A stretch of DNA of 64,000 nt, from the NCBI RefSeq assembly GCF_036507355.1, contig NZ_AP027877.1; one strand, written 5' to 3'. Source of the stretch: Escherichia coli. GTDB lineage: Bacteria > Pseudomonadota > Gammaproteobacteria > Enterobacterales > Enterobacteriaceae. Shown piece by piece: positions 20,290 through 45,620 of this stretch. The notes under the pieces were generated by a model. It was not told the origin of the DNA. It searched no databases and was given only the letters and a program-made list of their open reading frames with translations. Numbering within the stretch: position 1 is the stretch's first letter; every line of letters starts with the position of its first letter. Position numbers and translations under genes: made by a program.

Positions 20290-20440
20290 GCCCCTCCCGA
20301 GGAAGGGGCCATAAATAAGGAAAGGGTCATGATGAAGATACTCATCATCGTGGCGCTCTTAGTGATTAGCTACCCAGCATACTAAGACTACCAGGGCGGG
20401 GGAAACCCCGCTCTACCCTCACTCCTGAAAGTATGCCTTC
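20290..20440 (-). ncRNA. sib: Sib-family antisense sRNA (antitoxin) overlapping ibs copy 1; boundaries approximate
   Basis: By family knowledge Sib RNAs are about 140 nt and fully antisense to ibs; minus-strand hairpin GGCCCCTTCCTCGGGAGGGGC+TTTCCC at 20291-20320 is a candidate terminator. Confidence 0.45.
20329..20385 (+). CDS. ibs: Ibs-family type I toxin peptide (MMKILIIVALLVISYPAY)
   Basis: 18-aa hydrophobic peptide ORF with MMK start and RBS aagg, inside Sib/Ibs repeat unit. Confidence 0.8.
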   Translation: MMKILIIVALLVISYPAY

Positions 20441-20636
20441 ACGTTCAGAATGTCAATCCGCAGGCTTTGCAGTCTGCGATCCTGCCAGCAAATATTCTTT
20501 GCGAGACGTTACGCAATAATCACAGAGGAAACTATTTTGTTCACGCGTTAGCGATAGACTGAATTCAGGGCGAAAGGAGGTAAGCCGACGATTTCAGCGG
20601 GACGCTGAAACGGGAAAGCCCCTCCCGAGGAAGGGG

Positions 20637-20648
20637 CCTTAAATAAGG
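20637..20648 (+). repeat. attL core: 12-bp direct repeat CCTTAAATAAGG flanking the island
   Basis: Identical 12-mer at 20637-20648 and 30686-30697; left copy ends the sib half-unit, right copy directly precedes the ibs RBS. Confidence 0.7.
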
Positions 20649-20721
20649 TAAGTTGCACATTTAAAATCTCTTTAATTATCAATAAACTACAATGTATAGG
20701 TCATTATTAGTCAAAATAAAA

Positions 20722-21621
20722 TCATTTGTTGATTTCAATTTTGTCCCATTCTCTCCCTCGGCTATCCCTATACCGCGCCGCCATTGAATCTGATTTATGT
20801 CCGAGAAGACGTTGAGCAAACTTATCGCCAATCTGATTCCGGTATAGCCTCGCCGACAGGCTACGCAGTTCATGGAATGTTGGTGGGTCTCCATCAAATG
20901 AGAGTCCAGATGCATTTCTCGCCTTTGTAAAATACTTCGATACTGTTTTCGGGGAAAGCGGTTCGTGATGCGTTGAGGCGATTATAGTTTCACTGCCGCT
21001 GGCCTCCCTGCATTTCTGTAGTGTATCAGCCAATGAGATATTGAGCGCGTCAATCGTTAGCATCAGCGGAATGGCGAGCTTAGCCCCTGTTTTACCCTGT
21101 TCAATGTGAAGATGGTTGTCGTTTATGTCTGACCATTTCATTCTGCACAAATCGCCGACTCTCTGCCCTGTAACGACAGCCGAATCCATCGCCAGTCTTA
21201 GCCAGATTGGGAGAGGTTCGGCTGCATGGTAAATCGCGACATACTCATTAGCTGTCAGCCTTGAGCGCCTTACTTCTGACTTTGCTGTGCGGGTTGCTGT
21301 TACCGGATTCGTTTCCACATGCCCCTCGGCTATTGCCTCACGAAAAACGTCAACAAGGGTTGACCTGATTAATTTTGCGGAAGCCGCTTTACCTTCTGCT
21401 ACGTAGGTGTTTAGCATTGCTGCCACCTCTTTCGTTGATATGTCAGCGAGCGGTTTGTCCGGCAATTTTCTTCGGATTGCCCTGATTTTGCTGGCGTAGT
21501 CGAGTAGAGTTTTCGTCCTGATCCCCCTCTCGCTGAGGATTGTTTCATATCGGTCAAGCCACGCATGAAGAGTGATTACGTCAGCGCCTTTAATCCTGTC
21601 TATCAGTGAGGTAGCCTGAGT
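20722..21621 (-). pseudogene. int: Tyrosine recombinase (phage integrase), N-terminally truncated
   Basis: Catalytic-domain motifs present (…HELRSLSARLY…LLGHKSDSMAARYRD…); reading frame continues upstream of the annotated start to 21621 (…SLIDRIKGADVITLHAWLDRYETILSERGIRTKTLLDYASKIRAIRRKLPDKPL) and is cut by an IS3-family fragment. Confidence 0.75.
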
Positions 21622-22120
21622 TTAACGGACACTCCTTCCTGAAATAGAATGGCATCAGAAGGAGCTAATAATGAGCAGAAAAACCCAACGTTACTCTAAA
21701 GAGTTCAAAGCCGAAGCTGTCAGAACGGTTCTTGAAAATCAACTTTCGATCAGTGAAGGCGCTTCCCGATTATCTCTTCCTGAAGGCACTTTAGGACAAT
21801 GGGTTACCGCCGCCAGAAAAGGGCTCGGTACTCCTGGTTCCCGCACGGTGGCTGAACTGGAATCTGAAATTCTGCAACTGCGTAAGGCGTTAAATGAAGC
21901 TCGCCTTGAGCGAGATATATTAAAAAAAGCAACGTATTTTGCACAGGAGTCGCTGAAAAATACGCGTTAATCGAACAATGGCGACAACAATTTCCCATTG
22001 AAGCGATGTGTCAGGTATTTGGTGTATCCAGGAGCGGTTATTACAACTGGGTACAGCATGAACCCTCAGACAGAAAACAAAGTGATGAGCGGCTAAAACT
22101 GGAGATTAAGGTGGCACATA
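21610..22120 (+). mobile_element. IS3-family element, 5' fragment only (orfA plus first about 38 codons of orfB)
   Basis: orfA 21671-21970 plus orfB N-terminus MCQVFGVSRSGYYNWVQ... in -1 frame, homology lost after about 22118; boundaries approximate. Confidence 0.6.
21671..21970 (+). CDS. IS3-family transposase OrfA (HTH)
   Basis: 99-aa ORF MSRKTQRYSKEFKAEAVRTVLE...ERDILKKATYFAQE, typical IS3 OrfA with leucine zipper and A-run slippery site near 3' end. Confidence 0.8.
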   Translation: MSRKTQRYSKEFKAEAVRTVLENQLSISEGASRLSLPEGTLGQWVTAARKGLGTPGSRTVAELESEILQLRKALNEARLERDILKKATYFAQESLKNTR

Positions 22121-22149
22121 CGGTAACAAGCCGATACATGCCACACGCA

Positions 22150-22756
22150 TTACTCACCCTCTTTGATGCGAATGCCAGCGGCGCGTGGCACATTAACTTC
22201 CACGATGCGCACTGTTGGTTTGTACATCTCAATCGCTGTCAGCCAGTCAGCTCCTGTCATGCGCTTTTCCGCATCGCCATTAGTCCACTGAACCGGTACA
22301 CCAATAGCCTTCATCGCGATTTCTATTTCCCCGGCAATGGCGCTTTTTCCGCAACCAGTAAAACCAGAAACAACGACAAGAACTTCACCTTTGGCTGGTT
22401 TTATTTCCCGTGCTTCCAGTTCTGCAATGCGCTTACTTCCATCCGCGATTACTCCCTCGTAATATTCACGCTGCTCGTTGAGTTTTGATTTTGCTGCTTC
22501 AAGCTCAACTCTCAGCTTCCCTACCGTTAGCGCAATATCCTCGTTCTCCTGGTCACGGGATTTGATGTATTGCTGGTTTCTTTCCCGTTCATCCAGAAGC
22601 GCCAGCACGGTTGCCGGATTAGCCTTGGCAACAAAATCACGGACTGGCTTACAATCAATCTCAGCAATGGGTTGATACGATGTGTATCCATGCTGTCTTG
22701 TATAACTACCGTGACGAATAACGAAAAAATCACCATTTATTTTTTTAGCCTGCCAC
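22150..22756 (-). pseudogene. Phage-derived protein fragment with P-loop-like motif (GFTGCGKS); 5' end interrupted by IS1
   Basis: Reading frame runs into IS1 terminal bases at 22757; annotated start codon lies inside IS1. Confidence 0.5.
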
Positions 22757-22771
22757 GGTAATGACTCCAAC

Positions 22772-23275
22772 TTATTGATAGTGTTTTATGTTCAGATAAT
22801 GCCCGATGACTTTGTCATGCAGCTCCACCGATTTTGAGAACGACAGCGACTTCCGTCCCAGCCGTGCCAGGTGCTGCCTCAGATTCAGGTTATGCCGCTC
22901 AATTCGCTGCGTATATCGCTTGCTGATTACGTGCAGCTTTCCCTTCAGGCGGGATTCATACAGCGGCCAGCCATCCGTCATCCATATCACCACGTCAAAG
23001 GGTGACAGCAGGCTCATAAGACGCCCCAGCGTCGCCATCGTGCGTTCACCGAATACGTGCGCAACAACCGTCTTCCGGAGCCTGTCATACGCGTAAAACA
23101 GCCAGCGCTGGCGCGATTTAGCCCCGACATAGCCCCACTGTTCGTCCATTTCCGCGCAGACGATGACGTCACTGCCCGGCTGTATGCGCGAGGTTACCGA
23201 CTGCGGCCTGAGTTTTTTAAGTGACGTAAAATCGTGTTGAGGCCAACGCCCATAATGCGGGCTGTTGCCCGGCAT
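22772..23275 (-). CDS. insB: IS1 InsB
   Basis: 167-aa InsB ORF overlapping insA (frameshift fusion partner). Confidence 0.95.
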
Positions 23276-23469
23276 CCAACGCCATTCATGGCCATATCAA
23301 TGATTTTCTGGTGCGTACCGGGTTGAGAAGCGGTGTAAGTGAACTGCAGTTGCCATGTTTTACGGCAGTGAGAGCAGAGATAGCGCTGATGTCCGGCGGT
23401 GCTTTTGCCGTTACGCACCACCCCGTCAGTAGCTGAACAGGAGGGACAGCTGATAGAAACAGAAGCCAC
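23194..23469 (-). CDS. insA: IS1 InsA
   Basis: 91-aa [43 protein letters not shown]... Confidence 0.95.
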
Positions 23470-23548
23470 TGGAGCACCTCAAAAACACCATCATACACTA
23501 AATCAGTAAGTTGGCAGCATCACCGCCTGCCACGGTAATGACTCCAAC

Positions 23549-24052
23549 TTATTGATAGTGTTTTATGTTCAGATAATGCCCGATGACTTTGTCATGCAGC
23601 TCCACCGATTTTGAGAACGACAGCGACTTCCGTCCCAGCCGTGCCAGGTGCTGCCTCAGATTCAGGTTATGCCGCTCAATTCGCTGCGTATATCGCTTGC
23701 TGATTACGTGCAGCTTTCCCTTCAGGCGGGATTCATACAGCGGCCAGCCATCCGTCATCCATATCACCACGTCAAAGGGTGACAGCAGGCTCATAAGACG
23801 CCCCAGCGTCGCCATCGTGCGTTCACCGAATACGTGCGCAACAACCGTCTTCCGGAGCCTGTCATACGCGTAAAACAGCCAGCGCTGGCGCGATTTAGCC
23901 CCGACATAGCCCCACTGTTCGTCCATTTCCGCGCAGACGATGACGTCACTGCCCGGCTGTATGCGCGAGGTTACCGACTGCGGCCTGAGTTTTTTAAGTG
24001 ACGTAAAATCGTGTTGAGGCCAACGCCCATAATGCGGGCTGTTGCCCGGCAT
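23549..24052 (-). CDS. insB: IS1 InsB (copy 2)
   Basis: Identical to copy 1 InsB. Confidence 0.95.
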
Positions 24053-24246
24053 CCAACGCCATTCATGGCCATATCAATGATTTTCTGGTGCGTACCGGGT
24101 TGAGAAGCGGTGTAAGTGAACTGCAGTTGCCATGTTTTACGGCAGTGAGAGCAGAGATAGCGCTGATGTCCGGCGGTGCTTTTGCCGTTACGCACCACCC
24201 CGTCAGTAGCTGAACAGGAGGGACAGCTGATAGAAACAGAAGCCAC
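23971..24246 (-). CDS. insA: IS1 InsA (copy 2)
   Basis: Identical to copy 1 InsA. Confidence 0.95.
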
Positions 24247-24296
24247 TGGAGCACCTCAAAAACACCATCATACACTAAATCAGTAAGTTGGCAGCA

Positions 24297-25112
24297 TCAC
24301 CCTTCCTTGATTCTTTTTTCTTCTGCTATTCTGGCTTGCTCTTTTGCTTCAGCCTCGCGCCGGATTCGTTCAGCCTCCTCCTGTGCTTTTCTGCGTTCTG
24401 CTTCAATTGCTGCCTGCTTTTCTCTTTCAGCTCGTTCTGCTGCCTCTTTTGCTTCGCGCTGTGCTCTCTGCTCGGCTTCAATGCGTTCACGCTCTGCACG
24501 TTCCGCTGCGGCCTTAGCTTCTGCTTCTCGCCTTGCTGCTGCTTCAATTTCGGCTTTTGCCTTTGCTTCGGCTTCAGCTCTGGCTTTCTCTTCAGCTTCT
24601 CTTTTTAAGCGTTCTTCATGCTCTCGCTTTTCCTGCTCCGCTTTGAGTCTTGCCTCTTCTCTTTGGCGGTCAAATTCGCGATCCATCAAAATCGCTATTT
24701 CATGGTCAGACTCAATTTGCTTTGCGAGAGCTTCAGCTGCTGCCTTAGCTTCTTCTTCGGCTTTAATCCGCGCCTGTTCTTCCTCATAATCAGTAAGAGG
24801 CTGGCGCGCCTTGGCTTTCAGTTCATCAAGGCGATCGCGCACTGTCTTGCGGTTGGCATCAATTAGCTTTGGAATTTCCTTCAGTTCAGCAACAAGGTCT
24901 TTGCCAAGACCATCGAGATATGTTTTCGTCTGCGCAACTTTATACGCCAGAGAAGCGATCTCCTTTCTGCCCTTTGCCGTTGTGATATCAGGCACAAAGG
25001 ACATAACTTCACGTTCAACCTTTTGAAGGATTTCTTCAATCTGGTCGGCAGACTGAAATACAGTCATTGCATTTGCTTTTTCAATAACAACTAAATCTGT
25101 TACTTCACTCAT
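24297..25112 (-). CDS. Phage-associated coiled-coil protein with long K/E/A/R-rich repeat region; 3' end abuts IS1, stop codon created at junction
   Basis: ATG with strong RBS ggagga at 25112; low-complexity EAKAKAE/RREAEAK repeats; frame terminates using IS1 terminal bases. Confidence 0.55.
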   Translation of the reverse strand: MSEVTDLVVIEKANAMTVFQSADQIEEILQKVEREVMSFVPDITTAKGRKEIASLAYKVAQTKTYLDGLGKDLVAELKEIPKLIDANRKTVRDRLDELKAKARQPLTDYEEEQARIKAEEEAKAAAEALAKQIESDHEIAILMDREFDRQREEARLKAEQEKREHEERLKREAEEKARAEAEAKAKAEIEAAARREAEAKAAAERAERERIEAEQRAQREAKEAAERAEREKQAAIEAERRKAQEEAERIRREAEAKEQARIAEEKRIKEG

Positions 25113-25246
25113 ATATCCTCCATCAAAAAAATTGCCCTCACATCGGAGGGCAAAGAAGATTTCCAATAATCAGAACAAGTCGGCTCCTGTTTAGTTACGA
25201 GCGACATTGCTCCGTGTATTCACTCGTTGGAATGAATACACAGTGC

Positions 25247-25450
25247 TTATTCGCGAGCTTTGAGCATTGCGTCTGCAAACTTATATGCAGCGCTTGCTGC
25301 ATAATTAACAGCTCCATCAGAATCATTATCGATAATCGATGGATTGCTAATCATTGCTTGCATAGCCTTAGCAGCGAAGTAATCACGTAATGTCGCATCA
25401 CTTGCCATTTCTGGGCGTTTGATATCTGCTTCATAAAACTCGCACATCAT
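25247..25450 (-). CDS. Small hypothetical phage protein (67 aa)
   Basis: ORF with ATGATG start overlapping stop of an upstream fragment; no family assigned. Confidence 0.4.
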   Translation of the reverse strand: MMCEFYEADIKRPEMASDATLRDYFAAKAMQAMISNPSIIDNDSDGAVNYAASAAYKFADAMLKARE

Positions 25451-25617
25451 TCACCTCCCAGAGCCTTGCTGATTGCTGCAAGACCTTTATTAACAGCTCC
25501 ATACCATTCTGGATATGTTGTCGTTGTTCTATTTTTGGATTGCTTAAGTAATAACTGAAGTGCTTCGAGAAGGTCAGGTGCTGCCGCTATTAGATTGGCA
25601 TCTTCAATACATTGAAC
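25451..25617 (-). pseudogene. C-terminal fragment of a phage gene truncated by IS3-family element
   Basis: In-frame coding sequence ...DANLIAAAPDLLEALQLLLKQSKNRTTTTYPEWYGAVNKGLAAISKALGGE with stop overlapping next ATG; upstream continuation replaced by IS end at 25618. Confidence 0.4.
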
Positions 25618-25674
25618 TGAATCGCCACGGGTTTAACAGACACCTCAGAGTCATTTAAGATGGCTTAAAGAGAG

Positions 25675-25959
25675 GTGCCCATGAGCGGTAAGCGTTATCC
25701 CGAAGAGTTTAAAATTGAAGCAGTCAAACAGGTTGTTGATCGCGGTTATTCTGTTGCCAGCGTTGCAACACGTCTCGATATCACCACCCACAGCCTTTAC
25801 GCCTGGATAAAGAAGTACGGTCCGGATTCTTCCGCTAATAAAGAACAGTCAGATGCTCAGGCCGAGATCCGCCGTCTCCAGAAAGAGCTGAAGCGGGTTA
25901 CCGACGAACGGGACATATTAAAAAAAGCCGCGGCGTACTTCGCAAAGCTGTCCGACTGA
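25675..25959 (+). CDS. IS3-family transposase OrfA
   Basis: 94-aa MPMSGKRYPEEFKIEAVKQVV... HTH plus leucine zipper. Confidence 0.85.
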   Translation: MPMSGKRYPEEFKIEAVKQVVDRGYSVASVATRLDITTHSLYAWIKKYGPDSSANKEQSDAQAEIRRLQKELKRVTDERDILKKAAAYFAKLSD

Positions 25960-26015
25960 GGTACGCCTTTATCCGTGACAACACCTGTTGCTGGCCTGTT
26001 CGCCTGCTCTGTCGG

Positions 26016-26828
26016 GTGCTGGATGTTCATCCCAGTGGTTTTTACGCCTGGCTTCAGCAGCCGCATTCACAACGCCATCAGGCAGACCTGAGGCTGACAG
26101 GGCAGATTAAACAGTTCTGGCTGGAATCGGGATGCGTCTATGGTTATCGCAAAATCCATCTGGATCTGCGGGACAGCGGGCAACAGTGCGGAGTGAACAG
26201 AGTCTGGCGACTGATGAAACGTGTCGGGATAAAGGCTCAGGTCGGATACCGGAGCCCGCGGGCACGTAAAGGCGAGGCCAGTATCGTGTCGCCCAACAGG
26301 CTCCAGCGACAGTTCAATCCGGATGCTCCGGATAAGCGTTGGGTAACGGACATAACCTACATCAGGACCCACGAAGGCTGGCTGTATCTTGCCGTGGTTG
26401 TTGATCTGTTCTCACGCAAAATTATCGGCTGGTCCATGCAATCCCGGATGACAAAGGACATTGTCCTGAACGCACTGCTGATGGCTGTATGGCGCCGTAA
26501 TCCCCAAAAACAGGTGCTGGTTCATTCGGATCAGGGCAGTCAGTACACAAGCCATGAGTGGCAGTCGTTCCTGAAATCACACGGCCTGGATGGCAGCATG
26601 AGCCGTCGCGGTAACTGCCATGATAATGCGGTTGCAGAAAGCTTTTTCCAGTTGTTGAAACGCGAACGGATAAAGAAAAAGATCTACGGAACGCGGGAAG
26701 AAGCCCGCAGCGATATTTTTGATTACATCGAAATGTTTTATAACAGTAAGCGTCGGCATGGTTCCAGCGATCAGATGTCACCGACAGAATATGAAAACCA
26801 GTATTATCAACGGCTCGGAAGTGTCTAG
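26016..26828 (+). CDS. IS3-family transposase OrfB (DDE integrase domain); produced as OrfAB via -1 frameshift
   Basis: 270-aa ORF in -1 frame relative to orfA with DDE-type motifs (…WVTDITYI…HSDQGSQYTS…NAVAESFF…); frame continues back to slippery site. Confidence 0.85.
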   Translation: MLDVHPSGFYAWLQQPHSQRHQADLRLTGQIKQFWLESGCVYGYRKIHLDLRDSGQQCGVNRVWRLMKRVGIKAQVGYRSPRARKGEASIVSPNRLQRQFNPDAPDKRWVTDITYIRTHEGWLYLAVVVDLFSRKIIGWSMQSRMTKDIVLNALLMAVWRRNPQKQVLVHSDQGSQYTSHEWQSFLKSHGLDGSMSRRGNCHDNAVAESFFQLLKRERIKKKIYGTREEARSDIFDYIEMFYNSKRRHGSSDQMSPTEYENQYYQRLGSV

Positions 26829-26847
26829 ATTATCCGTGGCGATTCAA

Positions 26848-27236
26848 TATTGGCCTGATAATTGAAATTGATGACTCAGTATTCAATAATGCATCTAAAT
26901 TCGTAGGTGGTGTTGTTATTCTTGATAATCTAGTTTGTGAATGTAAGACCTATCTCAAAAGAATCGCTTTAAGTCGTATTAGCGGAAGTACTTTTGGCGC
27001 ATTCAACGGAACAGGTCTTACAATTAACGGAGCAAGAGAGATTTACATGGTAAACTCTGGTGGTCATTATAGTAATGACAATGCTATTCACTTAATCAAT
27101 GTGCGTAATAGTGTTTTTTCTGGCAGTAGTTTTACTAACGCTGTGAACTCATGTCTTCTTTTAGATGATTGTCACGACTTAACATTTACCAGTGTGAATG
27201 CTGGTTTTGTAGAGGTATACGAATAATGGCCAACAT
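26848..27236 (+). pseudogene. 3' fragment of a tailspike/beta-helix-like phage gene, truncated by the IS3-family element
   Basis: In-frame translation ...GGVVILDNLVCECKTYLKRIALSRISGSTFGAFNGTGLTINGAREIYMVNSGGHYSNDNAIHLINVRNSVFSGSSFTNAVNSCLLLDDCHDLTFTSVNAGFVEVYE* starts at IS boundary with no start codon. Confidence 0.5.
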
Positions 27237-27534
27237 AACCCCAAAGTATGGGTTCAACATATCAACAGGGTGCACAGGTATTATTTTAGTAGGTTGCACC
27301 AGTGCAGGTAATAGTATTGCAAACATAACTGGTGGCGGTTATGTAGATGGTAGCACTAGAGTATTAGCATGTAATGGCATGCCTGATTCAGTTATTGTTC
27401 TCCGTGGGTCTACTGCGGAGCGCCCTACAGCACCAGTCAGTGGGCAGATGTATTATGATACAACGCTAGGTCTTCCAATATGGTATAACGGCACAGCTTC
27501 ATCATGGCAGCGAGCTGATGGAACAAATACTTGA
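27229..27534 (+). CDS. Small tail-fibre-like protein (102 aa), function unknown
   Basis: ATG overlapping stop of preceding fragment (TAATGG); Gly/Thr/Ser-rich; ends near gtr module. Confidence 0.4.
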   Translation, partial: ANITPKYGFNISTGCTGIILVGCTSAGNSIANITGGGYVDGSTRVLACNGMPDSVIVLRGSTAERPTAPVSGQMYYDTTLGLPIWYNGTASSWQRADGTNT

Positions 27535-27579
27535 TTAATTTATGGCGCATCAATATAAAGTATCGATGCGCCATAATAA

Positions 27580-29067
27580 TCACTGACAAATGTTTTTGTC
27601 AAAATCAACTACAATAATATCATCATATGAGTATAAGTTATATTCATATGCTCTTTTAATCTTTGCGGTTGAGCAAAAGGTTTTTTCATTTAACACACTT
27701 GCAATGTTTGTATTCCCAGGGTGTTTAAAGTAAACTCCAACTCTATTCATATAAGGGAATGGCCAATCCCAATTATAGAAATACTCTGGGAAAAATCTAG
27801 ATATTAACGGGTAATTATTTCGTGCGTTTACAAAAACATCATTGTCTTTCTTTTTACCATTAAAAATAAGTATCTGATTTGTTTTTCCGCTTAACTCGAA
27901 AGCATCATTTTTAATCTGATGAAACAGAACTGTGGTTATGTTTTTTTCTTCTGTCATTGCATTTGTGTATGAACATAAAAAACCAAAAACATAAATCAGA
28001 GGAATTACAAGTATATATGTTATTGAATTTTTTGTTTCTCGCGAGAAAAGATAAACAATCATGAATAAGAACAACATCGTAGCAGAAAAACCGATCATCA
28101 CTCTTGGGGCGTCGATGTGATGCTGAAGTGGTAATAGAGTAGCAAAAGACAATATCAAAGCTGTTACTGGCGATGTTATTGTAATTAAAAAATTAATAAT
28201 ACCAGTAATACTTTTATTAGGTATTAATTTCTTTAGCGCGATAAATGTCGTCATTGCAATGAAAAATAAAAATATTACTATAAACGCAACTCGTCCTGAT
28301 TCCCCAAAAATACCACTAGATATTGAATGAAGATAAAATTTTAAGTTTTCATATATAACTGAAAAAATGCCTTCAGTTTTAATTGATGGGTGATCCGGGT
28401 CCCCAACAACAGTTAAAAATAAAGGAATAACCACCAAAAAATATAATGCAACACCTATAACTAATGATACCGTCTTTTCTATGAGGTAAGTTAATAGATG
28501 TCTGTTACTATCTGAGTTAAAGTACATGTAAACATATTTACACAGAATAATAACCAGCATGAAATTTAATGATGCTTGGTATATAGACAATATAAATAAT
28601 GTTAACAGGGCGGCAAAAGAAATATTTAAAATTGTCTTTTTGAAATTAAATATTACAACTGAGAATGACAATGCAATACTCATGAACATCGGTAAAACAT
28701 CAAAGCGATACATTGCATTTTCAATTAAAAATGGGCTTGATAAAATACCAAGAGGAACCAACAGTCCAATAAATTTATTATCTGTCGATATAAACATCCT
28801 GCTAAAAAAATACAGGCAAACAGATATCAAAAATACTGATAATATTGCAGGAAATGGGAATAAGTCCGTTATGTGCATGTTGAAATTCAATGCAATCATC
28901 AACATTTCAGCCAAAGGTCTACCATCCCTAGCCCATCCAGTATACCCCCATATAGCTCTTCCCTGATCATCTACATAATGAATATTTGCCATGATGATGG
29001 GGGTGAAATATATAAAAACAGATATCAAGAACCAATGGAAAGGTGTTTTGTTTTTATTTGCAATCAT
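27580..29067 (-). CDS. GtrC-like type-specific O-antigen glucosyltransferase (polytopic membrane protein)
   Basis: 495-aa ORF, multiple TM helices, strongly AT-rich, immediately downstream of gtrB with overlapping stop/start. Confidence 0.7.
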
Positions 29068-29983
29068 TTTTCTGATCCTTTAAAACATATCTTGGGCGCT
29101 GCTTAACTTCAATATAAATACGTCCTATGTACTCTCCAAGTACACCAATACCAATTAGTTGTACGCCGCCAAGAAACAATATTGATACAAGAATTGAAGG
29201 GTATCCAGGTACATTATTACCAAAAATCAATTTATCAATTATCATCCATGAACCGTATGTAAATGATATACATGCAATAAATAACCCAATATAGGTCCAC
29301 ATGCGAAGCGGGAAAGTAGAAAAGCTAGTGATCCCTTCCAGCGCCAAGTTCCATAGCTTCCATCCATTGAACTTTGTGCTTCCTGCAACGCGTTCTGCTC
29401 GCGCATATTCTACGACATCGGTTCGACCACCAACCCAGCTCAGCACACCCTTCATAAACAGGTTTCGTTCTGGCATGAGCTTAATGTTTTCTACTACTTC
29501 GCGAGACATGAGCCGGAAGTCGCCAACATTCTCTTCTATCTGAGGGTTGCTGATTTTGTTATGAAGTTTATAGAACCACTCAGCAGATTTACGCTTCAGC
29601 CTGCTGTCAGTGGAGCGGTCAGAGCGTTTAGCCAGAACCATATCTGCACCGGCCTGCCATTTCTCTATCAAGTGAGGAATAACTTCGATAGGGTCTTGCA
29701 GATCAACGTCAATCGGGATAATTGCCTCCCCGGTAGCATGGTCCAGACCTGCGAACAGGGCGGGTTCTTTGCCGAAGTTACGTGTGAACGACAGCGAAAC
29801 CACAAGCGGGTCGGCAACAGCAAGCTCGTTGATAATTGATTCTGTAGCGTCTTTGCTGCCATCGTTTATGAAGACTATCTCGACTTCATGCTGCTGAAGC
29901 CCTTCAAATTCGCGCACGGTTTTATAAAAAATAGGTATCGTGGCCTCTTCGTTAAAGACCGGAACGACTAAAGAAATTTTCAT
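29054..29983 (-). CDS. gtrB: GtrB bactoprenol glucosyltransferase (GT2 family)
   Basis: 309-aa [16 protein letters not shown]...[10 protein letters not shown]...C-terminal TM helices; matches conserved GtrB. Confidence 0.9.
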
Positions 29984-30342
29984 TTCGCATCCCTAAAGAC
30001 AATGAACTTTGAATAGATGAAACCGCACACCAGGCTGATGGCGGAGAAGGTGACAAGAGTTATCATCGGGGGAAGTGCGCATCTATCAGCAGCCCATCCA
30101 ACAGTAGCACTGAGTGTTCCCATGAACCCGACATATAACATGTAGCGCATCGTTGTAGTTGATGCTTTGAATGTGAATTTTGCATTCGCGAAGAAGCTAA
30201 AACTCACAGCCACAACGAAACCTGCGAAGTTTGCCAGAGCCTGATTGGTATGCGCGGCATAGATACATACACCAAAAACCACCCAGTGTATAAGTGTGTT
30301 CAGCACACCAATCGAGGTGTACCTTGCAAATATATTTAACAT
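29980..30342 (-). CDS. gtrA: GtrA flippase (small 4-TM protein)
   Basis: 120-aa [31 protein letters not shown]...; overlaps gtrB start. Confidence 0.9.
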
Positions 30343-30685
30343 TTATTTAATCAATGAGTTCTGAAAGGTATGAAGTCTATCATCCAAGTCTCAATCGATC
30401 GATACTTGCGGTAGTTGATGAGGAAAACTCTGGTACACAAAGCTTTGCACTGGACTGCAAGGTGTTGTGCTTCTCTGGAGTGCGACATGTTTGATAACAA
30501 AAAATTAGCGCAAGAAGACAAAAAATCACCTTGCGCTAATGCTCTGTTACAGGTCACTAATACCATCTAAGTGGTTGATTCATAGTGACTGGATATGTTG
30601 TGTTTTGTCGCATTTTGCAGTCTATTATTTAACCGCGAATTCGTGTAATGCGATGATTTTTAAGTGATTAATATTATTTTGTCAT

Positions 30686-30697
30686 CCTTAAATAAGG
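30686..30697 (+). repeat. attR core: 12-bp direct repeat CCTTAAATAAGG
   Basis: Identical to 20637-20648; followed by aaagggtcATGATG of ibs. Confidence 0.7.
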
Positions 30698-30705
30698 AAA
30701 GGGTC

Positions 30706-30762
30706 ATGATGAAGTGGATCATCATCGTGGTGCTCTTAGTCATAAGCTTCCCGGCTTACTAA
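30706..30762 (+). CDS. ibs: Ibs-family type I toxin peptide (MMKWIIIVVLLVISFPAY), right half of the unit split by the island
   Basis: 18-aa hydrophobic ORF; upstream repeat-unit sequence replaced by island DNA. Confidence 0.75.
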   Translation: MMKWIIIVVLLVISFPAY

Positions 30763-30994
30763 GACTACCAGGGCGGGGGAAACCCCGCTCTACCCTCACT
30801 CCTGAAAGTATGCCTTCACGATAAGATTGTCAATCTGCAGGCTTTGCAGTCTGCGATCCTGCCAGCAAATATTCTTTGCGAGTCGTTACGCAATAATCAC
30901 AGAGGGAACTATTTTGTTCACGCGTTAGCGATAGACTGCATTCAGGGCGAAAGGAGGTAAGCCGACGATTTCAGCGGGACGCTGAAACGGGGAA

Positions 30995-31145
30995 CCCTCT
31001 CCCGGAGAAGAGGGCTTTTAATAAGGAAAGGGTTATGATGAAGCACGTCATCATACTGGTGATACTCTTAGTGATTAGCTTCCAGGCTTACTAAGAACAC
31101 CAGGGGGAGGGGGAAACCTCTCCCTAACCCTCACTCCTGAAATTA
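30995..31145 (-). ncRNA. sib: Sib-family antisense sRNA overlapping ibs copy 3; boundaries approximate
   Basis: Same unit architecture as 20290-20440, with hairpin gggaaccctctcccggagaagagggc upstream of the ibs RBS. Confidence 0.4.
31035..31094 (+). CDS. ibs: Ibs-family type I toxin peptide (MMKHVIILVILLVISFQAY)
   Basis: 19-aa hydrophobic ORF within complete repeat unit 3. Confidence 0.8.
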   Translation: MMKHVIILVILLVISFQAY

Positions 31146-31314
31146 TGTCACTCCGCCCTTAGTGTCAATCGACGGCTCTCCGTTCTTGCGAGGCGAATAG
31201 CAAAATTTTCTGCGCCGCCGGGACTAATTCTGAAAGTTTCTTCGTTTGCTCTTATTTCATTATTGCAGTCGGTATGATACCGGACCTTAATAATTCTCTA
31301 AGAAAGGATTTCTT

Positions 31315-31974
31315 ATGAGCGAACAAATCACGTTTGCCACCAGCGATTTTGCCAGTAACCCGGAACCACGTTGCCCCTGCATTCTGCTGCTGGATGTATC
31401 TGGCTCGATGAGCGGCAGACCTATTAATGAACTTAACGCCGGATTGGTTACCTTTCGTGATGAACTGCTTGCTGATCCGCTGGCTTTAAAAAGAGTGGAA
31501 CTCGGCATTGTGACGTTCGGCCCGGTGCATGTGGAACAACCCTTTACCAGCGCCGCTAACTTTTTCCCGCCCATCCTGTTTGCCCAGGGCGATACACCAA
31601 TGGGGGCCGCCATTACCAAAGCCCTGGATATGGTTGAAGAGAGGAAACGTGAGTACCGCGCAAATGGTATTTCGTATTATCGCCCGTGGATTTTCCTGAT
31701 CACCGATGGCGCTCCAACCGATGAGTGGCAGGCTGCCGCCAACAAAGTGTTTCAGGGGGAAGAAGATAAGAAGTTTGCCTTCTTTTCCATCGGTGTTCAG
31801 GGGGCGGATATGAAGACGCTGGCCCAAATCAGCGTCCGTCAGCCTTTGTCTCTGCAGGGATTACAATTCCGTGAACTGTTTAGCTGGTTATCCAGTTCGC
31901 TGCGTTCGGTTTCCCGCTCCACGCCGGGAACGGAAGTTGTGCTGGAAGCGCCAAAAGGCTGGACGTCAGTGTGA
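31315..31974 (+). CDS. yegL: von Willebrand factor A (vWA) domain protein YegL
   Basis: 219-aa ORF with MIDAS motif (DVSGSMSG); overlaps yegK start. Confidence 0.85.
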
Positions 31975-32732
31975 GCTGGCGTCTGGTTTATGCATCCGCT
32001 GTTGGAACGTCGCACATTAGCGCTGATTTACCTTGTCAGGATGCCTGCCAGATGCAGGTTGCCTGGCTAAATGACCAGCAGCCATTACTGGTGATGTTCC
32101 TTGCTGATGGCGCAGGTAGCGTTTCGCAGGGAGGAGAAGGCGCGAAGCTCGCCGTCAATGAAGCGATGGCGTTTATGGTGCAAAAAGTACAGGACGGTGA
32201 ATTGGGGCTTAATGATGTCCTCGCCACAAATATGGTACTGACCATTCGTCAACGACTTTTTGCCGAGGCAGAAGCCAAAGCATTAGCAGTTCGCGATTTT
32301 GCCTGCACGTTTCTGGGATTGATTTCATCGGCTAACGGCACATTGATTATGCAAATTGGCGACGGCGGTGTAGTGGTGGATTTTGGTCACGGTCTGCAAT
32401 TACCGCTTACGCCGATGGTGGGTGAATATGCCAATATGACGCATTTCATTACCGATGAAGATGCCGTTTCCAGACTGGAAACTTTCACCAGCACTGAGCG
32501 TGTGCATAAAGTTGCAGCATTTACGGATGGTATCCAGCGACTGGCGTTAAATATGTTGGATAATTCTCCGCATGTGCCTTTCTTTACCCCTTTTTTCAAT
32601 GGACTGGCGGCAGCAACGCAGGAACAGCTCGATTTATTACCTGAATTGTTAAAGCAGTTTTTGTCCAGCCCGGCGGTAAACGAGCGTACCGATGATGATA
32701 AAACGTTGGCACTGGCGCTGTGGTTACCATGA
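31971..32732 (+). CDS. yegK: PP2C-family Ser/Thr phosphatase YegK
   Basis: 253-aa ORF with PP2C-like motifs (…LADGAGS…DGG…); overlaps yegI start. Confidence 0.8.
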
Positions 32733-34669
32733 AACCCACTTTATATACTGCTACTGGTGAGTGCGTTACGCCAGGCCGTGAACTGGGCAAAGGTGGCGAA
32801 GGCGCGGTTTATGATATCAATGAGTTTGTCGATAGCGTCGCCAAGATTTATCACACGCCGCCACCCGCCTTAAAACAGGACAAACTTGCCTTTATGGCTG
32901 CGACAGCTGACGCGCAGTTGTTGAATTATGTCGCCTGGCCGCAGGCAACGCTTCACGGTGGACGAGACGGAAAAGTTATCGGTTTTATGATGCCAAAAGT
33001 TTCTGGTAAAGAACCGATTCATATGATCTATAGCCCGGCACATCGTCGCCAGAGTTACCCTCATTGTGCGTGGGATTTTCTACTCTATGTTGCGCGCAAT
33101 ATTGCTTCATCTTTTGCTACGGTTCACGAGCACGGGCACGTCGTGGGGGACGTAAACCAGAACAGCTTTATGGTAGGTCGCGACAGCAAAGTGGTGTTGA
33201 TCGATAGTGACTCTTTTCAGATTAACGCCAATGGCACACTGCATTTATGCGAAGTCGGCGTGTCGCATTTTACGCCGCCAGAGCTACAAACCTTGCCATC
33301 ATTTGTCGGTTTTGAACGTACCGCGAATCACGATAATTTTGGCCTTGCGTTGCTGATTTTTCACGTCTTGTTTGGTGGGCGGCATCCTTATTCTGGTGTG
33401 CCGCTTATCTCTGATGCGGGTAATGCGCTGGAGACGGATATTGCCCATTTCCGTTATGCCTACGCGTCAGATAATCAGCGACGTGGTTTAAAACCGCCGC
33501 CACGATCTATTCCGCTGTCGATGTTACCGGGCGATGTTGAAGCCATGTTTCAGCAGGCATTCACGGAAAGTGGCGTGGCAACGGGGCGTCCGACGGCTAA
33601 AGCGTGGGTAGCGGCACTGGACTCTCTACGCCAACAGTTAAAGAAATGTACCGTTTCAGCAATGCATGTTTACCCCGCTCATTTGACTGACTGCCCGTGG
33701 TGTACGCTGGATAATCAAGGCGTTATCTATTTTATTGATCTCGGCGAAGAGGTCATTACCACCGGCGGTGATTTTGTGCTGGCGAAAGTCTGGGCGATGG
33801 TGATGGCGTCAGTAGCGCCGCCAGCATTGCAACTGCCATTACCCGATCATTTCCAACCGACTGGCAGGCCGCTTCCTTTAGGCCTGTTACGGCGCGAATA
33901 CATCATTCTGATTGAGATCGCACTGTCAGCGTTATCGCTGTTGCTTTGCGGCCTTCAGGCAGAACCGAGTTATATTATTTTGGTTCCTGTGCTGGCGGCT
34001 ATCTGGATTATTGGCAGTCTGACAAGCAAAGCGTACAAAGCAGAAGTTCAGCAACGCCGTGAGGCATTTAATCGCGCGAAAATGGACTATGACCATTTAG
34101 TCAGCCAGAGCCAACAGTTGGGCGGGCTGGAAGGTTTTATCGCCAAACGGACGATGCTCGAAAAAATGAAGGACGAAATTCTCGGGTTACCGGAAGAAGA
34201 AAAACGTGCTCTGGCAGCACTTCACGACACTGCAAGGGAACGGCAGAAGCAGAAGTTTCTGGAGGGATTTTTTATTGATGTTGCCTCTATTCCCGGCGTT
34301 GGCCCTGCGCGTAAAGCGGCGTTACGATCTTTTGGTATTGAAACAGCCGCGGATGTTACCCGTCGTGGGGTTAAGCAAGTTAAAGGGTTTGGTGATCATC
34401 TGACCCAGGCGGTTATCGACTGGAAAGCGAGCTGTGAACGCCGTTTTGTGTTCAGGCCGAACGAAGCGGTAACGCCTGCAGACAGACAAGCGGTAATGAC
34501 TAAAATGGCCGCCAAACGACATCGGCTGGAATCGACGTTGACTGTCGGCGCGACAGAGTTGCAGCGATTCCGCCTTCATGCTCCAGCACGGACCATGCCG
34601 TTGATGGAACCGTTACGTCAGGCGGCAGAAAAACTGGCTCAGGCGCAGGCTGATTTAAGCCGTTGCTGA
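32729..34669 (+). CDS. yegI: Eukaryotic-like Ser/Thr protein kinase YegI
   Basis: Kinase-like N-terminal domain (GKGGEGAVY..., HGDVNQNSF..., DSDSF) plus long C-terminal extension; ATG at 32729 (GTG alternative at 32720). Confidence 0.8.
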   Translation: MKPTLYTATGECVTPGRELGKGGEGAVYDINEFVDSVAKIYHTPPPALKQDKLAFMAATADAQLLNYVAWPQATLHGGRDGKVIGFMMPKVSGKEPIHMIYSPAHRRQSYPHCAWDFLLYVARNIASSFATVHEHGHVVGDVNQNSFMVGRDSKVVLIDSDSFQINANGTLHLCEVGVSHFTPPELQTLPSFVGFERTANHDNFGLALLIFHVLFGGRHPYSGVPLISDAGNALETDIAHFRYAYASDNQRRGLKPPPRSIPLSMLPGDVEAMFQQAFTESGVATGRPTAKAWVAALDSLRQQLKKCTVSAMHVYPAHLTDCPWCTLDNQGVIYFIDLGEEVITTGGDFVLAKVWAMVMASVAPPALQLPLPDHFQPTGRPLPLGLLRREYIILIEIALSALSLLLCGLQAEPSYIILVPVLAAIWIIGSLTSKAYKAEVQQRREAFNRAKMDYDHLVSQSQQLGGLEGFIAKRTMLEKMKDEILGLPEEEKRALAALHDTARERQKQKFLEGFFIDVASIPGVGPARKAALRSFGIETAADVTRRGVKQVKGFGDHLTQAVIDWKASCERRFVFRPNEAVTPADRQAVMTKMAAKRHRLESTLTVGATELQRFRLHAPARTMPLMEPLRQAAEKLAQAQADLSRC

Positions 34670-44199: not shown

Positions 44200-45620
44200 A
44201 TCGGGTACGGGCGCGAGGTAACATATATGGACGCTCCCGGAATGCAATGCTTTCTTCAGTTATGTAATAAAACGGGTAGGTGCAGCCATATATCCGGTTT
44301 CTGATGGGATTTTTATCCCGAACCATGATGAAATCCGCCAGGCAGGTACCAATCATCCTCTACGGGCTAACTTGCCCTTGTTACCTCTCGGTGTATCCTG
44401 CCTGCGGTCTTACCTGTTTTGCCATCTTCTGAAGTCACCTGCACCTACCAGGACGTTAACTTTTTTTCAGCACCTCGTCAGATTGACTGACCTTGTGTCA
44501 GGCGAGCTGCCGAGGTTGATATTCAGTATTGTGTGACAACATTGACCACATGCTCCTCGCTGTTTTTGCCGCCATGGCGACAACAGCTACATTGTAGTGC
44601 TTCCGCTCAAGGAGTCCCTGAAGCCAGGAATTCTCCTCAACCGCGCCGTTTCGGTTGACCCAGGCGGTAAGTGCGCGTGCGCCGTGAACCAGCAGGTATC
44701 GGAAATATCCATCTCCACGTTTGCTGATCCCTCCCAGTTGCTGTTTCCCGCCGCTGGAATGTTCCTTTGGTGTCAGCCCCAGCCATGAAGCGAACTGCTT
44801 TGCGGTACTGAATTGTCGGGCATTACCCACTGCTGCTACCACATAAGTGGCCGTTAGCATGCCAACCCCCGGGATTTTGGCCATTCTCTGGCAGGCTTCC
44901 TGCGTTCTATACCAGGAGGCCAGAGCTTCTTCTACCTGTTTAACTTGTTCTTCAAGTTCCCGGATATGTTTAGACTGTCTGTAGATGCTGGTTCTGACAA
45001 AGGGAGATAAACCATTTTCGCTATCCTCCAGAATGGCTGGCAGCTCACGGGTTAAATGGCTTTGTCCGGCCGCAATCGTAATACCAAACTCAGCAAGTGT
45101 GGCTCTTAAACTATTGGCACAGGCAATCCGCTCACGGATAAGTATTCCCCGTTCAGTGTGTAACGCTAAAACGGCCTGCTGCTCTTCGGTTTTTATCTGA
45201 ACAAAACGCATATTCGGACGGGTTACCGCTTCGCAGATTGCTTCAGCATCTGCTGCATCCGTCTTGTTCGTTTTCACATAAGGCTTCACATACTGCGGAG
45301 GTATGAGTTTTACCTCATGACCATAGCGGGTGAATAATCGCGCAAAATAATGACTGGATGAGCAGGCTTCCATGCCAATCAGACAAGGTTCCAGTTGAAT
45401 CACAAACTGAACAAACTTAGCCCGGGTGAGCTTTTTACGCAAAATAGTATGGCCTTCATGATCGACACCATGAAGCTGAAAAACGTTCTTTGCCAGGTCG
45501 ATACCAAGAGTTGATACTTTCATGTGGACGCTCCTAATTTTTCAGGACGTATTGCAACGATCCAGTCTGGTACTTTGATACCGTAAAATCTGGAGCGTCC
45601 ATCTCATTATCCCTTCCCTG
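44200..45620 (-). mobile_element. IS110-family (IS1111-like) insertion sequence; ends approximate
   Basis: Single DEDD-type transposase ORF, no obvious long terminal IRs; 11-bp inverted copies of ATGGACGCTCC at 44227-44237 and 45588-45598; long 3' non-coding region. Confidence 0.6.
44498..45523 (-). CDS. IS110-family transposase/recombinase (DEDD type)
   Basis: 341-aa ORF MKVSTLGIDLAKNVFQLHG...MEACSSSHYFAR...DAADAEAICEA...RPNMRFVQIKT..., pattern typical of IS110/IS1111 transposases. Confidence 0.85.
   Translation of the reverse strand: MKVSTLGIDLAKNVFQLHGVDHEGHTILRKKLTRAKFVQFVIQLEPCLIGMEACSSSHYFARLFTRYGHEVKLIPPQYVKPYVKTNKTDAADAEAICEAVTRPNMRFVQIKTEEQQAVLALHTERGILIRERIACANSLRATLAEFGITIAAGQSHLTRELPAILEDSENGLSPFVRTSIYRQSKHIRELEEQVKQVEEALASWYRTQEACQRMAKIPGVGMLTATYVVAAVGNARQFSTAKQFASWLGLTPKEHSSGGKQQLGGISKRGDGYFRYLLVHGARALTAWVNRNGAVEENSWLQGLLERKHYNVAVVAMAAKTARSMWSMLSHNTEYQPRQLA

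Follow-up and report, generated by a model that had tools for sequence, protein, structure and literature searches.

The O-antigens of Shigella and Salmonella are glucosylated by phage-borne three-gene gtr modules. In the accepted mechanism, which is summarized in PMC7685785, glucose linked to undecaprenyl phosphate (Und-P) is made, flipped, and transferred to the O-antigen in the periplasm. In the clusters of the Shigella phages SfI, SfII, SfIV, SfV, and SfX, gtrA, gtrB, and a low-GC type-specific gene lie at the attachment site attR beside the tail genes; in the Salmonella phage P22, gtrABC (O:1 factor) is convergent to the tailspike gene; and in Escherichia coli K-12, the cryptic prophage CPS-53 is a remnant that keeps its gtr end only, yfdG-yfdH-yfdI. 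A further set is present in the O44 strain E. coli 042. Here, a module of this kind is described which is located on the minus strand at positions 27580-30342 of a 64,000-nucleotide stretch of the E. coli chromosome (contig NZ_AP027877.1, assembly GCF_036507355.1; "the window"). It is an intact and probably expressed Gtr operon, probably from a P22-like phage, the product of which would most likely be the O17 antigen. The three genes are as follows.

29980-30342, minus strand: gtrA, 120 amino acids (aa), small membrane protein and proposed Und-P-glucose flippase (PF04138)
29054-29983, minus strand: gtrB, 309 aa, GT2 bactoprenol (Und-P) glucosyltransferase (PF00535)
27580-29067, minus strand: gtrC, 495 aa, type-specific transferase of the GT-C fold; the exact protein is WP_338388274.1

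The limits given for the module in the original prediction, which had been made from the sequence without database searches, coincide exactly with these open reading frames (ORFs). All three are intact and overlap in an operon-like manner, by 4 nt between gtrA and gtrB and by 14 nt between gtrB and gtrC. Precomputed Pfam matches of identical proteins in public assemblies are GtrA_DPMS_TM (PF04138), Glycos_transf_2 (PF00535), and Glucos_trans_II (PF14264), respectively, and since the homology matches have E-values near 0, the ORFs are not chance ORFs. The GC content is 0.45 for gtrA, 0.44 for gtrB, and 0.31 for gtrC, compared with 0.51 for the whole window. The locus corresponds to the Gtr three-component system in gene content and position: a four-helix GtrA of about 120 aa; a GT2 protein close to known GtrB proteins; directly downstream, a low-GC polytopic third gene that varies between serotypes; and a position at the att-proximal end of a prophage beside tail genes, with the attR core 344 bp upstream of gtrA. 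Directly 3' of the gtrC stop codon, between gtrC and a convergent tailspike remnant, a hairpin can be read from the sequence.

27540-27576: hairpin with a 12-bp stem

A terminator is annotated at the equivalent place in P22; a simple terminator scan called nothing after gtrC, this hairpin included.

For direct comparison, the Gtr proteins of SfI, SfII, SfIV, SfV, HF4s, P22, and K-12 CPS-53 were used as references. The high conservation that had been claimed for GtrA and GtrB is borne out. GtrA is 78-96% identical to its counterparts in P22, SfI/II/IV/V, HF4s, and K-12 (85-86% for the Shigella phages, 96% for YfdG), and GtrB is 85-90% identical to characterized GtrB proteins (86-88% for the Shigella phages, 85% for K-12). 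GtrB is also 100% identical to WP_000703625.1 of O17-lineage genomes, and it is related to the polyprenyl phosphate sugar transferases ArnC and PgfS. For GtrA and for the 495-aa protein, no NCBIfam model was found. The locus differs from the Shigella phages, which use tRNA-thrW as their att site and act on a rhamnose backbone, in being inserted at a Sib/Ibs repeat and in having a likely mannose backbone as acceptor; CPS-53 is located at argW.

The third protein was predicted to be AT-rich and polytopic, and it is indeed encoded at 31% GC and contains ~10-11 hydrophobic helices and a C-terminal soluble domain of ~120 aa. Two cysteines of the latter, C465 and C494, are near-invariant, which suggests that it lies in the periplasm. 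In our own Pfam scan, it matched Glucos_trans_II (PF14264) with E=5e-27 over residues 26-333, covering model positions 5-317 of 317. The residues D33, D34, R37, P51, P71, D123, Y163, and Q164, which are invariant in an alignment with 50 relatives (51 sequences), are all retained, so that both the full-length match and the family-invariant residues by which PF14264 membership was judged are present; the Asp33-Asp34 pair sits just past the first hydrophobic helix. Because a PDB sequence search with the 51-sequence profile detected no solved relative, the GT-C fold is taken from a predicted model (predicted local distance difference test score, pLDDT, 94.7). The GT-C transferases ALG12/ALG3/ALG6/ALG9, the PMTs, ArnT, PglB/AglB/STT3, AftB, and PimE are 8-13% identical to the protein and differ from it in the C-terminal domain. 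Assignment to the Salmonella 'family II' GtrC acetyltransferases (BTP1 type) was considered and rejected, as Glucos_trans_II is the sole Pfam domain and the fold matches that of GT-C glycosyltransferases.

The similarity search against characterized transferases that had been proposed as a check returned P22 GtrC as the best homologue, with 25.7% identity over 443 aa; pairwise comparison with GtrI, GtrII, GtrIV, GtrV, YfdI (443 aa), and HF4s GtrC gave nothing significant. P22 shares with the present locus a PF14264 third protein, a gtrC convergent to the tailspike gene (an arrangement also seen in P22-like carriers of the present allele), and a core promoter that can be aligned, but its GtrC is only 26% identical. 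By tblastn of 50,697 phage genomes, the best matches reached ~25-26% identity; they came from Enterobacter phages and from Salmonella phages of the P22-like type, and Shigella phages were not among them. In a word-indexed homologue search, nothing was recovered beyond the 90% cluster of the protein itself and relatives of at most 28% identity. With HMMER, run exhaustively on 1.84 billion cluster representatives, 1,217 relatives were obtained (E<=1e-3), of which the two nearest are 40% and 37% identical. The former is encoded within a gtrA-gtrB-gtrC set beside a tailspike gene; the latter follows a gtrB-like GT2 gene on a contig on which no gtrA or phage genes were called. Alleles in other E. 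coli have the same length and differ at 2 and 6 residues; relative to the commonest, O17-lineage allele, the substitutions are I129M and S281L, each at a position that varies in the alignment. From the equal length and the few substitutions it follows that the ORF is not disrupted, a defect that would have spoken against the original prediction.

A further comparison is that with E. coli 042, whose GtrA is identical and whose gtrAB genes and upstream region are 97% identical; both modules would serve the O77-group backbone. By blastn, homology extends over 29064-30631 at 97.1% and breaks at 29064, within the last gtrB codons, with a weak 73% patch at 27451-27521. What lies between is replaced as a cassette.

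27522-29063, minus strand: variable cassette, not shared with the gtr module of 042, which is otherwise 97% identical
L030:9835-11310, E. coli 042: O44-type third gene, 491 aa, WP_000038425.1, annotated 'hypothetical protein', no Pfam match on record

The 491-aa protein has no similarity to the 495-aa protein in BLASTP (E>1), which agrees with the expectation that the type-specific gene is the variable part of the module. According to the citation of Wang et al. 2007 in PMC10304059, the O44 set consists of 'GtrA, GtrB, WbbG'. In 042, the module belongs to a Mu/SfV-like prophage between ybhC and ybhB, and in ST69 (sequence type 69) and O17 strains, the gtr module occupies this same prophage and site; the module in the window differs in lying at another chromosomal site in a different, decayed phage. 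On a metagenome contig (L023), the exact GtrA of the window is accompanied by a GtrB of 305 aa and by a third gene, for 491 aa and without Pfam match, that is apparently of the O44 type.

Of 5,426 complete E. coli genomes, 34 carry the same gtrC, and its identity is at least 99.5% in every case. O77-group clusters were searched for with a wzy-wzx query annotated as 'O17/O44/O73/O77/O106 family' by the Prokaryotic Genome Annotation Pipeline (PGAP); among the 60 genomes listed out of 93 that matched, at least 31 of the 34 carriers were present. One of the carriers is O17_K12a (NZ_CM144236.1; gtrC 99.7% identical), the O17:H18 reference strain (PMC13248637), in which this is the sole gtrAB locus. 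Another, MS14387, is an ST69 strain of type O17:H18 (PMC10024524), EC6868 is likewise ST69, and seven further carriers are O77g strains of PMC13248637, distributed over ST69, ST130, and a phylogroup G lineage close to ST130; ST925 is also among the O77g carrier types (PMC13248637). At blastn sensitivity, every carrier has one gtrAB locus only. The O44 strain 042 lacks gtrC. The types of the O77 group have one common backbone, and the proposal is that glucose added by gtr products alone sets them apart (PMC7685785, PMC10304059); O17 has a single glucose (Glc) branch (PMC10304059). Only the O44 gtr set has been located in this group (PMC7685785, PMC10304059), the side-branch transferases of the other types having been reported as unidentified as of 2023 (PMC10304059).

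Based on the carrier distribution, the reference strain K12a, the single locus, and the cassette swap with 042, it is probable that the module is an O17-specific glucosyltransferase cassette, which would convert O77 to O17. The original prediction had allowed for an uncharacterised modification. This holds for the gene, with P22 GtrC at 26% identity as its closest characterized relative and no paper assigning the allele to O17 found in our literature searches; for the modification itself, the distribution points instead to the chemically known O17 branch.

Several observations weigh against the O17 reading. Many carriers are clonal (ST69) or duplicate records, and the association therefore counts lineages only a handful of times; K12a may have an orphan transferase elsewhere; PSS-11 and GF66.2, which represent one lineage, carry gtrC together with an O176-family and not an O77-group cluster; carrier GN06156 was placed in neither of these two cluster groups; the O-antigen cluster of the present host lies outside the window and is assigned to the O77 group by linkage only; and a generic consensus promoter scan called no site upstream of gtrA. 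The module might also be active with a linkage other than that of O17: one of the two branches of O73 or O106, a serologically silent glucose, or an addition to the mannose backbone common to O77-group, O176, and Salmonella O-antigens that defines no serogroup. The O176-family carriers and a Salmonella P22-like prophage that also bears the gtrC allele would fit such a linkage, as would the fact that most carriers have been typed only in silico, as 'O77g'. It is nevertheless quite unlikely, given that gtrC represents the sole gtr locus of the O17 reference strain, that O17 has exactly one Glc branch, and that no carrier possesses the second gtrAB locus to be expected for two-branch types.

In PSS-11 and GF66.2, the gtr module lies within a P22-like prophage. 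The O-antigen cluster of these strains comprises gne, galF, two glycosyltransferase genes, manC, manB, a frameshifted wzy, and wzx, and its proteins are distant homologues of those of the O77 group (26-36% identity for the glycosyltransferases, 45% for Wzx). The frameshift is annotated in both of these independently sequenced strains.

L037:17954-19284, GF66.2: frameshifted O176-family wzy
L038:18485-19815, PSS-11: frameshifted O176-family wzy

If the wzy frameshift is real, PSS-11 and GF66.2 would make unpolymerized O-units. The O176 backbone is probably Man-Man-Man-GalNAc (Man, mannose; GalNAc, N-acetylgalactosamine). Like the O77 group, O176 contains several D-Man residues that are added by a bifunctional transferase (PMC7685785). 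The O176-family and Salmonella carriers suggest that a mannose motif is recognized and not the full unit of one serogroup. There is, in our estimate, a somewhat better than even chance that the 495-aa protein is the O17-determining transferase, that it recognizes a Man-Man-Man-HexNAc motif (HexNAc, N-acetylhexosamine) in the O77 group, O176, and some Salmonella, and that its gene can be used to split O77g. Recognition of such a shared motif would account for the movement of the cassette among no fewer than three phage backbones and sites of integration.

By homology to the Shigella and Salmonella systems, biosynthesis of the O17 branch would proceed as follows. At the cytoplasmic face of the membrane, GtrB would form Und-P-glucose from UDP-glucose, and GtrA would move it to the periplasmic face. 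There, the 495-aa GT-C enzyme would place the glucose on one residue of the O-unit, presumably by means of its Asp33-Asp34 loop and prior to ligation of the O-antigen to lipid A-core. As judged from the distribution, the acceptor would be the Man-Man-Man-GlcNAc backbone (GlcNAc, N-acetylglucosamine) of the O17/O44/O73/O77/O106 group, and the product would be the O17 antigen, that is, O77 with one glucose side-branch. The consequences would be a change of serotype and, by analogy with other such modules, resistance to phages whose receptor is the O-antigen in its unmodified form.

The host would have to supply this acceptor, and it is likely that its O-antigen is of the O77 group. The window is E. 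coli chromosome with baeSR-mdtDCBA, yegL-pphC-yegI, and then the colanic acid cluster, and 23 of 23 contigs read that contain its exact CpsG continue to galF and then to O77-group glycosyltransferase genes with 99.9-100% identity. The last 11.6 kb of the window are 99.974% identical to the CpsG-bearing contigs; the last ~2.4 kb are ~97% identical to PSS-11. The rare YegI allele of the window occurs in 8 contigs only, and every one of these that reaches the sib site has the gtr insert there. A host lacking O-antigen, which would likewise have spoken against the original prediction, is not what the CpsG linkage indicates, the linked cluster being probably of the O77 group.

Relative to K-12, a ~10-kb insertion is present between mdtA and the ibs/sib genes, i.e., between mdtA and yegL, with K-12 homology stopping at 20652 and restarting at 30689. 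In order, the insert contains a truncated integrase, an IS600-like insertion sequence (IS) fragment, two IS1, a few phage ORFs, an IS3-family element, two tailspike stubs, and gtrCBA.

20649-30685, ~10 kb: degraded prophage bearing the gtr module, missing from K-12; identified by PHROG matches and IS annotation
20637-20648: attL core CCTTAAATAAGG, 12-bp exact direct repeat with the attR core
30686-30697: attR core CCTTAAATAAGG, 12-bp exact direct repeat with the attL core
20722-21465, minus strand: truncated tyrosine integrase, C-terminal part (phrog_7244, phrog_1)
25675-26828: complete IS3-family element (orfA 25675-25959, orfB 26016-26828)
26831-27223 and 27271-27534, plus strand: two tandem tailspike C-terminal fragments, cut upstream by the IS3-family element

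Integrases that are 97% identical to this fragment lie beside mdtA in further E. coli strains such as RM14723. As a lambdoid prophage with this integrase occupies the same place there, the site is a genuine attachment site. By blastx, the first tailspike fragment matches the Salmonella P22-like prophage with the same gtrC (tailspike residues 349-479, 80% identity), and the second matches PSS-11 (tailspike residues 500-588, 57% identity). When compared with phage genomes as DNA, the tail-fragment region had given chance Bacillus matches only, and it was blastx against the tailspikes of related loci that resolved it. The tandem arrangement of unlike fragments suggests that recombination took place repeatedly where tailspike and gtrC meet and left this scar. 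The layout int...tail-gtrC-gtrB-gtrA-attR is that of P22- and SfV-type prophages, heavily decayed save for the gtr end, and the operon is probably the remnant of a decayed P22-like temperate phage. The original reading as a phage-type serotype-conversion module holds wherever it could be put to the test, and the position at the attR end, beside tailspike fragments, fits it.

The att core is found a short way upstream of an ibs toxin ORF and close to where a Sib gene has its 3' end. For Sib antitoxin RNAs (Rfam RF00113, 136-150 bits), the window has three complete genes, at 20314-20456, 30691-30833, and 31020-31168, compared with two (sibA, sibB) in K-12, and ~342 bp of K-12-like sequence flank the insert on both sides. 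Since the lambdoid prophage with the same integrase in other E. coli strains is located beside mdtA as well, a type I toxin-antitoxin repeat serves as phage attachment site.

In a prophage of this kind, the operon could be intact and still be without effect in its host, either for lack of an acceptor (another O-type, a rough strain, or unpolymerized O-units) or for lack of transcription. The heavy decay of the prophage, with its truncated int, at least three IS insertions, and tailspike stubs, could be read in this way, and so could the location of the host O-antigen cluster outside the window, the frameshifted wzy beside the same gtrC in PSS-11 and GF66.2, and the promoter scan. An inert operon is, however, unlikely. 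Amid the decay, the three ORFs and 289 bp of upstream sequence have been preserved intact, with 99% identity to other carriers, which suggests selection; the linkage points to an O77-group cluster in the host; and operons of the SfII and P22 types, which are functional, have a matching promoter region.

Upstream of gtrA, the following elements were recognized.

30343-30631, minus strand: conserved upstream regulatory region, 289 bp, 99% identical to O17-lineage carriers
30397-30402 (-35, TCGATC) and 30374-30382 (extended -10, TGaTAGACT), minus strand: inferred promoter, from alignment to the mapped P22 promoter
30498-30539, minus strand: GC-rich hairpin and T-run (TTAGCGCAAG...CTTGCGCTAATTTTTTG) upstream of the promoter, terminator-like and possibly serving as an insulator

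The putative gtr promoter was not called by the consensus scan and was placed by this alignment. In P22, the gtr transcription start has been mapped 33 bp downstream of GATC4 (Broadbent et al., PMC2909390); the 'promoter' feature of the GenBank record of P22 conflicts with this start, and that of the paper was used. Positions -125 to -1 of the gtr upstream region are conserved with the SfII and K-12 operons, as with the Shigella phages, and the sequence of the 30498-30539 hairpin is common to CFSAN061770.

Phase-variable expression, with ON/OFF switching inside a clone and hence a heterogeneous modification, is a feature of the gtr operons of Salmonella P22 and LT2_I and might also occur here; this would be in keeping with a GATC at 30397-30400 (-58) that overlaps the inferred -35 at the position of P22 GATC4. 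The P22 switch requires four GATC in two pairs and three OxyR half-sites (PMC2909390); by the criterion of that paper, the pairs lie upstream of the promoter, with 13 bp between the members of each, and overlap OxyR half-sites A and C. The GATC at -58 is the only one in the gtr upstream region, compared with sites at -135, -122, -71, and -58 in P22, and therefore the Dam/OxyR architecture of a P22-type phase-variable operon, with its 4 GATC and 3 OxyR half-sites, is absent. Upstream of -70, the sequence is unrelated to P22, and the Salmonella operon gtrLT2_II, which has one GATC and no recognizable OxyR site, is predicted not to be phase-variable (PMC2909390). Phase variation is thus highly unlikely, and the operon is probably expressed from a constitutive promoter of the SfII/K-12 type and not from a P22-type switch.

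Gtr modules are textbook biology, and the understanding of O-antigen modification is not changed by one more module of an ordinary, known kind; its practical value is modest and concerns mainly O77-group serotyping. A single O-antigen gene cluster is common to O17, O44, O73, O77, and O106, which are indistinguishable from genome sequence, and papers of 2019, 2023, and 2026 call the side-branch transferases, the O44 set excepted, proposed or unidentified. If the O17 assignment is true, presence or absence of gtrC together with the O44-type gene would split 'O77g' in genome-based serotyping. The O77g group contains uropathogenic ST69 and an emerging Shiga toxin-producing lineage, and an ST69 lineage was behind the French hemolytic uremic syndrome outbreak of 2025. 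The gtrC allele would also be a defined target for studying the effect of a single glucose branch on susceptibility to phages, amoebae, and antibodies.

A few other features of the window may be mentioned. The IS load is high for E. coli, with the IS600-like fragment and two IS1 at 21600-24246, the IS3-family element, and an element of the IS110 family.

44498-45523: IS110-family transposase, between asmA and yegH

In view of the IS load, a Shigella origin of the DNA was considered; it was rejected since E. coli assemblies contain the exact proteins in this context. On the minus strand at 24297-25166, a 289-aa phage protein (phrog_1376, function unknown) is encoded, in which a long, Glu/Ala/Lys/Arg-rich, coiled-coil-like repeat region coincides with the strongest AT-/GC-skew excursion nearby. 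Finally, yegL, pphC (yegK), and yegI at 31315-34669 are contiguous and overlapping without an intervening yegJ, which in K-12 lies between yegI and pphC.

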